Origin: Candidatus Thorarchaeota archaeon
GTDB lineage: Archaea > Asgardarchaeota > Thorarchaeia > Thorarchaeales > Thorarchaeaceae
Length of the DNA: 26,975 nt
Assembly (NCBI GenBank): GCA_003345595.1
Contig: PRDI01000085.1
Coordinates: 1 to 26,975 of the forward strand
Direction of reading: 5' to 3'
Positions within the stretch are counted from its first letter, which is position 1. Each line of letters starts with the position of its first letter. This document shows, piece by piece, positions 2,256 through 5,200 of this stretch. The translations under genes were made by a program, and so were the position numbers. The notes beneath the pieces were generated by a model that saw only the letters and a program-made list of their open reading frames with translations, was not told the origin of the DNA and ran no database searches.

Positions 2256-5200
2256 ATGCTGGCATCGAAGCGAAACAGCAGAAGAATCATCGCACATCTA
2301 GCGACGCTCCTTGTGACTGTTTCGGTAGTGGTGGGCCCTTTAGTGGCCTCCATGCCCGTGATTGCTACCGATGCTGTGTCAGCAGGGACTGCAGCTCATA
2401 TCGATGAAGCCCTGTTGCAGTACACCACATCAGATGAGAAAGTGGACTTGCTTGTTGGCTATCGCCCTGAAGCCGGCGAATTCAAGGCGCGTTACGCCAT
2501 CCAGATGGCAGACAAGGCTGCTGAAATCATCGAATCTTTTGAAGAAGTTGGCATAGTCCGAGTGAAACTCATTGGGAAAGCCATCATGGACCTAGCAGAA
2601 AACAGGCTCGTTACAGGAATATGGTCGAACGAACTGAGAGAGCTGAGTAGATCTCCCGACAAAAAGACATCAGAGATCCTGACAGCGAGCTACGAGTCGC
2701 CTGTTGATACTGTGGGGGCCAGAAACCTCTGGACTAGGGGATACAACGGCACTGGAGTTGTCATTGCTGTACTGGACACAGGTATCGACTTTCTTCATGC
2801 AGATTTGGACGACTTCGACGATGACAATACAACAACGGACCCCAAAGTTACAGCATACGCCTCCTTCTCGGAAGGTGACACTCTCCCCATTGACATCATC
2901 GGCCATGGTACTTATGCCGCTTCTATTGCAGCCGGTACAGGAAACAGATCCGGCGGGCTTTATGCCGGTATCGCGCCCGGAGCGACATTGCTTTCTGCAA
3001 AGGTGACATTGGGGGGTCTTCTTGCGGCACCCAGCTGGATTGTTTCCGGTATCGAGTGGGCATGCAGCAGAGGGGCCGACATCATTCTCATGCCGTTCAA
3101 TACGTTTGGGTCCCCCGGTGATGCTGTTTCGGTGGCTGTGAAGACAGCGGCTGAGAAAGGAGTCTTCGTCGTGGCGGCTGCTGGAGATGATGGACCAGAC
3201 TATCTGACAATAATGTCGCCTGGCGCAAGCGCTGCAGCCCTCACGGTTGGAGCTTATGATATGGACAAGGGAGAGGTGGCCGCGTTTTCGGGAAGGGGGC
3301 CCTCTCTTGATATGTTGACAAAGCCAGACATTGTCGCACCTGGCACCGGAATCGTAGGAGCAAGAGCAGGCAATGCACTCTCACAGGCCGGGTTCGGGTC
3401 ATTCAACCTCGGAAACTTGGGTGGGCTGTCTTCATTGCTCGGCGGCTCCTTTGGAGAGAGCGTGGACGACTACTACATGAAGGCAGACTCAACTGCTGCC
3501 GCGGCCGCAATCACGGCTGGAGCCGTCGCGCTTCTTGTGGAAGCGTTCGACCGTGCCACGCCTATTGTTCTGGCGAACGTCATCAGAGATACGGCAACCA
3601 GGCTCGACGATGGTGCGAACGATGTAGGATCAGGTCTTCTGAACCTTGAAGGGGCGTTTCACTTGCTAGAGCAGAAGCAGAGTCCCATTCAACCACACAA
3701 CAGGACGACCGGCACCCCACTCCTTGCTCTGGGCCTCCTATCAACTCAAGGGAGAGGTGCTTCTACGACTGTCTTGATGAGCAGCTATGGTACAGCCGTT
3801 GTCGCATTGGATCAGCGAGGAAATCAGGAAAGCAGCATCCACCTTCTAATGGGCATGCTGGCACTCCGATGGGAAAACAGGAGCCCGACAAACTTCATGG
3901 AATTCCAAGTAAAGAGAGAGCTCCATCAAGTGGCCATGAGTTCAGGCTTGAACTCCTATAACCGTTGGGTCGGGGTTCTCTCATATGATTCACTGTACGT
4001 CATCCTGCTAGTAGAGTCATACAACCTGACAAGCTCATCTCCTCTTCCAGTCACCGCCTTCAGACTTACACCGTTCATCCTGAACCTTGGCACAGAACCG
4101 GTGTCTAACGTGAGCTTGTTTCTCTCTTATTCGCTGGACCTGTTTCTTGACGGCAGAGATGATCATGGCAAGTACTCCCTCACGAATCACCAGCTGTTTG
4201 CGTACAGCATATCTGAAGGCTACCAATCTTTCTACGTAGGTCTCAACTCAAGCCGTCCTCTGGATGCATTTGAGGTGGGCAACTCCTCTACAATCTTAGA
4301 CCACGTGTCTAACGATAATCTGACGGGATCCACGAACTTCGACGGGACTGTCGGCCTCGGGATGAAGTGGAACTTCGGTACACTGCCCATCAACAGCCCG
4401 AAGAATGTTACAGTAGCTTTGGGCTTTGGGCAGAACCGCACAATGCTTGACCAGTCAATCGGAGCTATGTGGAGTCTTAGACCTTCATCCCAAGTCGCAA
4501 GCCAGAGCGACCTCATGGTTGTAGAGGCAGACATTCCTAGGACAGCGATGGCTGAGCACAGCTACCAGTCAAGAGCTGTCATAATGAATGTGGGGGCCAA
4601 TTCCTCACAAGCTGTTGGTGCAATGATTATCGGACAAGCAGAATCAGGCGGAGCGATGGTTTTCAGTAGGTTCTTTTCCTTCGATGAGGTTGAGCCCTTT
4701 CACGCCGAAACATTGACGACTGACTGGAGCCCAACAACAGATGGTATCTACTCTGCAGCGTGGGTTGTCGCAGCGGGCATCGAGTCTGCCATAGCTCTGT
4801 TTGCGAATCCGACTCAGCAACTGGCCACAGCAGGCGTAGCGCTTCTTGACGACTTCCTCTTGAGGGATTTGTTTGTCGTTGACCCAATCCCTTCTACATC
4901 GGTGTTTCCAAGATGGCTGCCATTCGCTCCGTTTGACGTACAATTCCCGGCGGACTTCGGACTGTATACATTCTCTCTACAAACGAACGTCCCTCTCGGC
5001 AACGTTTCGGTTGAAAAGCACGGGAACGCTAGTGACTGGGGCAATGTTACCCTTCCTTCAAGCGCTTCAGTGCTTGGATACTACAACTTCTCCCTGTTTT
5101 TACTCGTGCCACCCATAACCGTGGATGGCTATCACAGATGCGACTACAAGATCATCGCCGAGTCCGGTTGGACGGCCAATGTGACTCTTGAACGTGGCCT

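Follow-up and report, generated by a model that had tools for sequence, protein, structure and literature searches.

A subtilase-like surface protein family of Asgard archaea that has probably lost its catalytic activity

In this study, we describe a large subtilase-like protein of Asgard archaea and argue, with a probability that we put at about 0.8, that its S8 domain is an ancient and conserved non-catalytic pseudoprotease that is maintained under selection throughout the family. The gene was found in a stretch of 26,975 nucleotides (contig PRDI01000085.1 of the Candidatus Thorarchaeota archaeon assembly GCA_003345595.1), which is referred to here, at its full length, as the window. The case for the loss of catalysis is an evolutionary one, because it is drawn from a nucleophile column that drifts, from losses of the catalytic His and Asp and from purifying selection on the protein. 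The gene, its S8-like domain and the active-site columns are as follows:

2256..6602, + strand: pseudo-subtilase gene, 1448 amino acids (aa) plus stop, predicted type I membrane protein (open reading frame (ORF), Pfam)
2748..3617, + strand: S8 subtilase-like domain with pseudo-active site, residues 165-454 (PF00082, E 3e-43)
2775..2777, + strand: Asp174 codon GAC, in VLDTG; catalytic Asp column, kept
2904..2906, + strand: His217 codon CAT, in GHGT; catalytic His column, kept
3093..3101, + strand: Pro280-Phe281-Asn282, in place of the Ser-Leu-Gly substrate-cleft wall
3186..3188, + strand: Asp311 codon GAT, in AAGDDG / GDDGPDY; oxyanion-hole Asn column
3489..3497, + strand: Ser412 (TCA, 3489-3491), Thr413 (ACT, 3492-3494) and Ala414 (GCT, 3495-3497), corresponding to Gly-Thr-Ser of GTSMA

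The domain is homologous to family S8 (Pfam Peptidase_S8, PF00082, 148.5 bits against a cut-off of 21.8, residues 165-454). Active members of this family have an Asp-His-Ser triad with the Ser in GTSxA, and an Asn in the oxyanion hole (the equivalent of Asn155). As an earlier note on this stretch had read, Asp174 and His217 are both intact, the catalytic Ser column is occupied by Ala414, and AAGN has become AAGD, with Asp311 in the place of the oxyanion Asn. The HMMER alignment with the best sequence match in the Protein Data Bank (PDB), the subtilase Tk-SP (3afg, E 3e-42), sets the query segment 'adstaaaaaitag' ungapped on 'apgtamatphvag' and thereby Ala414 at the Ser column of GTSMA; the deposited 3afg chain reads Ala at this same column. 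Moreover, in a MAFFT alignment with two canonical Asgard subtilases (GTSMATPHVAG, AAGN, S-L/I-G), Ala414 falls under the Ser and Asp311 under the Asn. The same alignment procedure served as a control on 73 unrelated bacterial and archaeal S8 loci outside the pseudo-clade, taken from a scan for related loci with the family alignment that returned mostly canonical S8 proteins, and it gave D/H/N/G-T-S in all of them.

The remodelling is not confined to the nucleophile. The equivalents of M222 and P225 are both Ala, in agreement with the claim of the earlier note that the whole GTSMAxP motif is altered, and the equivalent of S125-L126-G127 is P280-F281-N282. Compared with canonical relatives, the replacements are family-wide: the Ser-Leu-Gly wall has given way to Pro-Phe-Asn/Ser (PF followed by N, S or A across the pseudo-clade, against S-L/I-G in the canonical relatives), the oxyanion Asn to Asp, and the His after HGT to Tyr or Phe, while the Gly, Ser, Met and Pro of GTSMAxP are substituted too. 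Most of the residues that replaced the canonical ones in the cleft were then conserved, which suggests that the cleft has been kept as a binding surface and was not abandoned.

Not every one of these replacements has the same weight. The exchange of Asn for Asp is not evidence of a dead enzyme on its own, because PC2 is an active convertase with a natural Asp at the oxyanion Asn position (PMC4182778). The same exchange strongly reduces the activity of Kex2 (PMC4182778). The oxyanion Asp is a hallmark of the pseudo-subtilase family and does not prove inactivity alone; as an independent proof of inactivity it was considered and rejected on the PC2 precedent. What carries the case for inactivity is therefore the nucleophile column, together with the losses of His and Asp that recur in the family. 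On these sequence grounds the proposal in the earlier note that the protease is catalytically dead is retained, and the use that it made of Asn-to-Asp is qualified.

Among Thorarchaeota, we surveyed 121 orthologue clusters that are 59-100% identical in the S8-like domain, and a tree was built from 120 of them with the motif columns left out. The canonical Ser is missing from most of these orthologues, a point that the earlier note had proposed for checking: column 414 is Thr in 62 clusters, Ala in 49 and Ser in 10 (62, 48 and 10, respectively, on the tree). At least 24 changes at this column were counted on the tree, against a median of 6 across the 320 columns of the catalytic domain, placing it in the top 9% most variable, and Ser was gained there at least seven separate times. 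Column 414 swaps freely among Ala, Thr and Ser, and Ala is unable to act as a nucleophile; the only constraint on the site is therefore one of size. Its surroundings are of another kind, since D411, T413, G310-D-D-G-P-D-Y316 and P280-F-N282 never or almost never change on the tree, 71 of the 320 catalytic-domain columns are invariant in the 120 orthologues, and D311 is present in all 121 clusters.

The same pattern was found at greater evolutionary depth. We searched 151 genomes of the phylum for full-length orthologues and fetched 14 loci from outside the window's family. Every one of the 26 genomes sampled from the window's family has a full-length orthologue, as do at least six further family-level groups, so that the pseudo-subtilase family spans at least seven such groups, with records named as Thorarchaeota, Candidatus Hermodarchaeum and a Promethearchaeota bin. 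In all 12 fetched loci that share the full-length architecture, the oxyanion column is Asp and the nucleophile column is Ala, Gly or Leu; four of the 12 have Arg in place of the His, and four have Gly at column 412. Other families contributed two longer proteins, of 1871 and 1876 aa, in which the full canonical signature is kept; they mark the edge of the pseudo-clade. Across 32 species representatives, column 414 is Ala in 20, Thr in six, Gly in three, Ser in two and Leu in one, column 412 is Thr in 16, Ser in 12 and Gly in four, and column 413 is Thr in all. The oxyanion column is Asp in every one of the 32, the His column is His in 28 and Arg in four, and the column of Asp174 is Asp in 30, with one Gly (in a Thorarchaeota locus) and one Ser.

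A profile of the C-terminal half of the protein was also run against 1.8 billion cluster representatives (50% clusters), and 68 proteins were recovered at E<1e-30. In the representatives that share the whole C-terminal module, H, R, S, I, E, D, T or Q occurs at the His column and A, T, G, S, F or R at the nucleophile column. The Asn is kept in five of them and D-H-S in two, and the canonical signature, meaning the SLG wall, the oxyanion Asn and GTSMxxP together, was found in no whole-module representative. Representatives that share only the part containing the GIFT domain, which is described below, are canonical subtilases. These sequence comparisons strongly support the view that the loss of catalysis is old and family-wide in Asgard archaea and does not concern one gene.

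With regard to the canonical relatives, subtilases of about 1200-1290 aa with a GIFT-like domain (P0199, P0218, P0206, P0258 and similar proteins) keep D/H/N/GTSMxxP, and the genome search of the phylum likewise gave open frames of 1239-1290 aa. These canonical proteins with S8 and GIFT domains are candidates for active counterparts of the pseudo-clade, or for its sister group.

It could be argued that the exchange of Ser for Ala arose as an error of assembly or sequencing, or that the gene is a recent pseudogene of one genome, especially as the assembly is a draft from metagenome data, with 129 contigs and 83% completeness. We consider the chance of this to be close to nil. Ala stands at the same column in 48 independent orthologue clusters, and the closest orthologue, 89% identical, likewise reads S-T-A. 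The ORF at 2256-6602 is open across 1448 codons, and the ratio of nonsynonymous to synonymous substitution rates (dN/dS) against this closest orthologue is 0.08 for the prodomain and S8 domain and 0.10 for the rest; dS is saturated in every pair except L008/L009, so that this is the single usable comparison. The statement in the earlier note that there is no general decay is in accordance with these values. All sampled 31-mers of positions 2700-3800 recur in wetland metagenome runs of two studies, whose two samples are both flagged as possible sources of the DNA, and one of the two studies has two more samples in which 90-95% of them recur. An artefact or a recent pseudogene was rejected on the orthologue evidence. 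Moreover, no other part of the protein is as well conserved as the catalytic domain, which has 42-49% identity in distant orthologues where the C-terminal half has 27-28%. The genome also encodes five other S8 paralogues, all with D/H/N/GTS. What is expected of a pseudoenzyme, namely a missing catalytic residue, purifying selection and conservation across species, is found here in full.

A contig of 180 nucleotides from a wetland metatranscriptome matches positions 2858-3037 with one mismatch, a weak hint of transcription for which carry-over of DNA is also possible.

Some observations weigh against a non-catalytic domain and deserve attention. In the 121 Thorarchaeota clusters, D174 is kept in 120 and H217 in 113 (Ser in five and Pro in three), both above the expectation for a fully relaxed site, and column 412 always bears a hydroxyl (Ser or Thr) next to a universal T413, which leaves room for a non-canonical nucleophile. 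Since PC2 is active despite its oxyanion Asp (PMC4182778), the protein might on these grounds still be a hydrolase, with Ser/Thr412 or Thr413 as an alternative nucleophile acting with His217 and Asp174, and with Asp311 serving as in PC2. We regard such an enzyme as very unlikely. The caveat in the earlier note that Ser412 could be a shifted nucleophile is disfavored by the Gly found at column 412 in four species-level lineages of the family (L033, L034, L037 and L039), and the His has given way to Arg in four lineages and elsewhere to S, P, I, E, D, T or Q, in loci whose ORF and synteny are intact. The conservation of Thr413 needs no new role, because this residue is the Thr of GTS and is equally invariant in canonical subtilases. 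The S-L-G cleft wall and the Met and Pro of GTSMAxP have, in addition, all been replaced.

A further point against the non-catalytic reading is that D-H-S stands at the triad columns in eight of the 120 Thorarchaeota orthologues. It is conceivable that the family is mixed, and that only the Ala variants, this protein among them, are dead, with low or autoprocessing activity persisting in the orthologues with Thr (62 of 120) or Ser (10) at column 414. We judge this, too, to be very unlikely, in view of the fact that the at least 24 interconversions and at least seven gains of Ser occurred with no change in the invariant flanks, the oxyanion Asp or the remodelled cleft, and all eight D-H-S orthologues keep Asp311 and that cleft. 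The deep lineages, represented by the 12 fetched loci, have Ala, Gly or Leu at the nucleophile column, and restoring the full triad did not revive CspC or CspA, two subtilisin-like pseudoproteases of Clostridioides difficile (PMC7200643). The non-catalytic reading is, for these reasons, the one that we prefer for the family as a whole.

The D-H-S orthologues (P0010, P0033, P0036, P0058, P0062, P0076, P0092 and P0106) are natural 'restored triad' variants that arose through at least seven separate changes.

Outside the S8-like domain, the protein contains the following parts:

2289..2363, + strand: hydrophobic N-terminal signal or anchor, about residues 12-36 (Kyte-Doolittle peak 2.27 over residues 10-42)
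2388..2627, + strand: predicted I9-like propeptide, residues 45-124 (AlphaFold fold, Foldseek)
3696..5255, + strand: beta-rich middle ectodomain, about residues 481-1000 (model mostly beta strands, predicted local distance difference test (pLDDT) about 80-95)
5349..5975, + strand: GIFT (GldG/IFT52-type) alpha/beta domain, about residues 1032-1240 (weak Pfam matches, family profile, Foldseek)
6291..6371, + strand: C-terminal transmembrane helix, residues 1346-1372, followed by RYRRKKR (Kyte-Doolittle peak 2.05)
6372..6599, + strand: tail on the cytoplasmic side, about 76 aa long, of helical and charged character (sequence and position)

Residues 45-480 were modelled with AlphaFold from a 34-sequence alignment (pLDDT 81.4, predicted template modelling score (pTM) 0.86). 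The model has a beta-alpha-beta-beta-alpha-beta unit at residues 45-124 (pLDDT 82-94), then a linker of low confidence and the subtilase fold. The top fold matches that Foldseek returned from the PDB are unprocessed pro-forms, namely ProN-Tk-SP, pro-subtilisin E and pro-Tk-subtilisin, in alignments of 420-460 columns that include the prodomain (E 1e-22 to 1e-30). A Pfam I9 match at E<0.01 was not found in the protein; on the predicted fold, an I9-like prodomain is probably present. The earlier note had further proposed that this propeptide is probably retained because the protein cannot cleave itself. The prodomain itself is supported by the model, and its continued attachment is most likely, as judged from the missing nucleophile and from the precedent of CspC and CspA. 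It is possible that the prodomain is cleaved in trans by another protease, such as one of the five intact paralogues.

A second model covers residues 481-1345 (pLDDT 82.6). It is rich in beta structure, and an alpha/beta domain lies at about 1032-1240. Among PDB folds, human site-1 protease ranks first for this C-terminal ectodomain (positions 3696-6260, residues 481-1335), with 8uw8 and 9csd matched at E 3e-11 over 436 columns and TM-scores of 0.24-0.27, and the next matches are a chain of the oligosaccharyltransferase complex and the GIFT domain of IFT52. For the GIFT domain, Foldseek gave a TMt of 0.68 and a root-mean-square deviation of 3.2 against 5fms_B, and the family profile matched the N-terminal GIFT domain of IFT52 at E 4.7e-11; against the site-1 protease chain it gave E 0.5, which is not significant. 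The Pfam matches in the GIFT region (IFT52_GIFT, DUF4350, ABC_transp_aux and MBTPS1_4th) are weak. PF23090 MBTPS1_4th scores 17.9 bits against a cut-off of 27, and PF09822 ABC_transp_aux 19 bits against a threshold of 34.7, so that neither membership in the site-1 protease family by sequence nor GldG membership by score is reached, and no NCBIfam model scores the pseudo-subtilase above its cut-off. No domain was found in the cytoplasmic tail of about 76 aa. N-x-S/T sequons number 27, against 11.2 +/- 3.1 in shuffles, and together with the hydrophobic N-terminus and the C-terminal transmembrane helix they indicate that the pseudo-subtilase is a surface protein of type I, probably N-glycosylated.

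The gene is flanked by genes of an ATP-binding cassette (ABC) transporter and by that of a giant surface protein:

2..559, + strand: 3' part of an ABC-2 type permease gene, truncated by the contig start (Pfam ABC2_membrane, E 3e-12)
560..2251, + strand: ABC ATPase 1, 563 aa, extended at the N-terminus by about 240 aa (Pfam ABC_tran, residues 265-407)
6589..7584, + strand: ABC ATPase 2, 331 aa, its start overlapping the stop of the S8-like gene by 14 nucleotides (Pfam ABC_tran, E 9e-27)
7581..14372, + strand: giant surface protein, 2263 aa, with an FG-GAP-like propeller and TSP3 repeats (TSP3_bac, E 2.5e-94)

The order permease, ATPase 1, S8-like gene, ATPase 2, giant protein was found in 19 of 19 Thorarchaeota loci, as far as their flanks reach, and in the sister family, and the same order minus the giant protein in the Hermodarchaeum group. 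From the permease to ATPase 2 it is kept in Thorarchaeota and in the family-level groups f2 and f12; in f19, f9 and f24 the same genes are linked but rearranged. ATPase 1 lies directly upstream of the S8-like gene in all 19 Thorarchaeota loci and in f2 and f12, and ATPase 2 immediately downstream in f2, f12 and 18 of the 19, the remaining locus ending at a contig edge within the gene. An orthologous permease ORF of 375-394 aa stands upstream of ATPase 1 in loci of f2 and f12. The giant protein is a conserved neighbor only within the order (f1 and f2). A gene for a tetratricopeptide repeat (TPR) protein is also among those that flank the S8-like gene. Both ATPases are DrrA/GldA-like according to NCBIfam. 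The genomic context is thus of the GldG type, in which the protein is encoded with an ABC-2 permease and its ATPase.

Other features of this cluster may be recorded here. The overlaps of 14 nucleotides (6589-6602) and 4 nucleotides (7581-7584) at the starts would fit a scenario in which the S8-like gene, ATPase 2 and the giant protein are translationally coupled. The extension of ATPase 1 (residues 1-240 of the protein encoded from 560, positions 560-1290) has only a weak match to a TrmB-regulator-like Pfam family (E 0.005); it is kept in f2, f12 and f19, where matches begin at query residue 17-22, and the matches of f9 and f24 start no earlier than residue 111-239. The giant protein at 7581-14372 scores 447 bits, against a cut-off of 400, with the NCBIfam model for CglD, a gliding adhesin of Myxococcus, largely via its repeats. 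The combination of GldA-like ATPases, an ABC-2 permease, a GldG-like GIFT domain and a CglD-scoring protein lends the cluster the flavor of a gliding apparatus. A separate cluster on the - strand (17023-23481) is unrelated and encodes a GNAT protein, an ATP-grasp enzyme resembling D-Ala-D-Ala ligase, a protein of 484 aa without a Pfam match and one of 1106 aa whose N-terminal domain is of the GNAT type.

How might such a protein act? The earlier note had offered a role as receptor, chaperone or scaffold, which can be narrowed, on gene order, to that of an extracellular accessory subunit of an ABC-2 transporter. The S8 fold, with the I9-like prodomain attached, would form a non-catalytic head for binding or scaffolding, borne on a site-1-protease-like stalk of beta domains, GIFT domain, transmembrane helix and short cytoplasmic tail, and the pseudo-active cleft, perhaps filled by the linker of its own prodomain, would be the binding or scaffold surface. 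The whole protein would then be the accessory subunit of an ABC-2 transporter made from the adjacent permease and the two different ATPases, and in Thorarchaeota this machine would be co-encoded with the giant FG-GAP/TSP3 adhesin-like protein, which may be its partner. We give roughly even odds to such a GldG-like accessory subunit, for which gene order and GIFT similarity are the evidence. Weighing against it are that this evidence consists only of gene order and of GldG/GIFT similarity below threshold, and that in family f7 these queries recovered no ABC genes over a distance of about 6-8 kb. A bolder proposal would make the pseudo-subtilase the extracellular head of an Asgard surface machine, in which a two-ATPase ABC-2 motor, working through this single-pass protein, holds, presents or moves the giant integrin/thrombospondin-like adhesin by mechanotransmission resembling that of bacterial GldAFG or FtsEX, and would have the ancestry of its prodomain-S8-GIFT-transmembrane layout shared with eukaryotic site-1 protease; this is speculative, and we think it doubtful.

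Proteins of this family are automatically annotated as "S8 family serine peptidase". Asgard archaea are often portrayed as protein degraders, and metabolic reconstructions may miscount the pseudo-subtilases as extracellular proteases of these organisms; the family should be removed from such counts. It seems to be a large and old case of a subtilase turned pseudoenzyme, and its drifting nucleophile in a mostly conserved cleft may offer a natural system in which to ask why a dead cleft is kept. Moreover, three features point to a conserved surface apparatus, which would belong to the closest prokaryotic relatives of eukaryotes: a layout like that of site-1 protease, the presence of a GIFT domain, and the fixed linkage of the gene to those of an ABC-2 permease and two ATPases, joined in Thorarchaeota by the giant protein. 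In the literature searched, which was incomplete, no paper was found on an Asgard pseudo-subtilase family, on its apparatus or on an Asgard link to site-1 protease or GldG.

The known systems that come closest each share a part of this picture. CspC and CspA of C. difficile, the best-studied pseudoproteases of the subtilase type, have an uncleaved prodomain and act as germinant receptors (PMC7200643). They resemble the Asgard protein in having the S8 fold and triad substitutions and in being functional non-enzymes, and the pseudo-active-site residues of CspA vary among relatives, which may be compared with column 414 (PMC7200643). In contrast, CspC and CspA are spore proteins from Firmicutes, soluble and about 550 aa long, and lack a GIFT domain, a transmembrane helix and an ABC context. 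The Asgard protein is not a member of their families (NF040808, 41.3 bits against 675; NF040809, 41.5 against 1250); the catalytic loss in Asgard archaea is independent of that in CspC and CspA. Among solved structures, Tk-SP of Thermococcus kodakarensis (3afg) comes closest in both sequence (E 3e-42) and fold (E 1e-30, N-propeptide included), and it shares with the pseudo-subtilase an insertion before the nucleophile motif ('...NDYY...'). It differs in being a canonical subtilase, whose relatives here are all D/H/N/GTS, and in lacking the site-1-protease-like C-terminal part of 900 aa. Native Tk-SP is active and autoprocessing. PC2 is likewise a natural subtilase with Asp for the oxyanion-hole Asn, but it keeps the catalytic Ser and is active (PMC4182778).

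Site-1 protease (MBTPS1/SKI-1) has the same order of prodomain, S8 domain, beta-rich domains, GATase/GIFT-like domain, single transmembrane helix and short tail. However, it is an active protease, and with a C-terminal sequence similarity that is not significant and low TM-scores the likeness is one of fold and layout only; a common origin with the eukaryotic enzyme was not established by our fold and profile comparisons. GldG and the ABC_transp_aux proteins share a GIFT-type extracytoplasmic domain and genes placed beside an ABC-2 permease and GldA/DrrA-like ATPases. They differ in that GldG, by its Pfam description, has no subtilase domain and in that the Asgard cluster has two different ATPase genes. 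Pseudoproteases of the subtilase type were already known, and the Asgard family differs from CspC and CspA in its lineage and size, in its membrane anchor, in the layout of its domains and in the genes around it.

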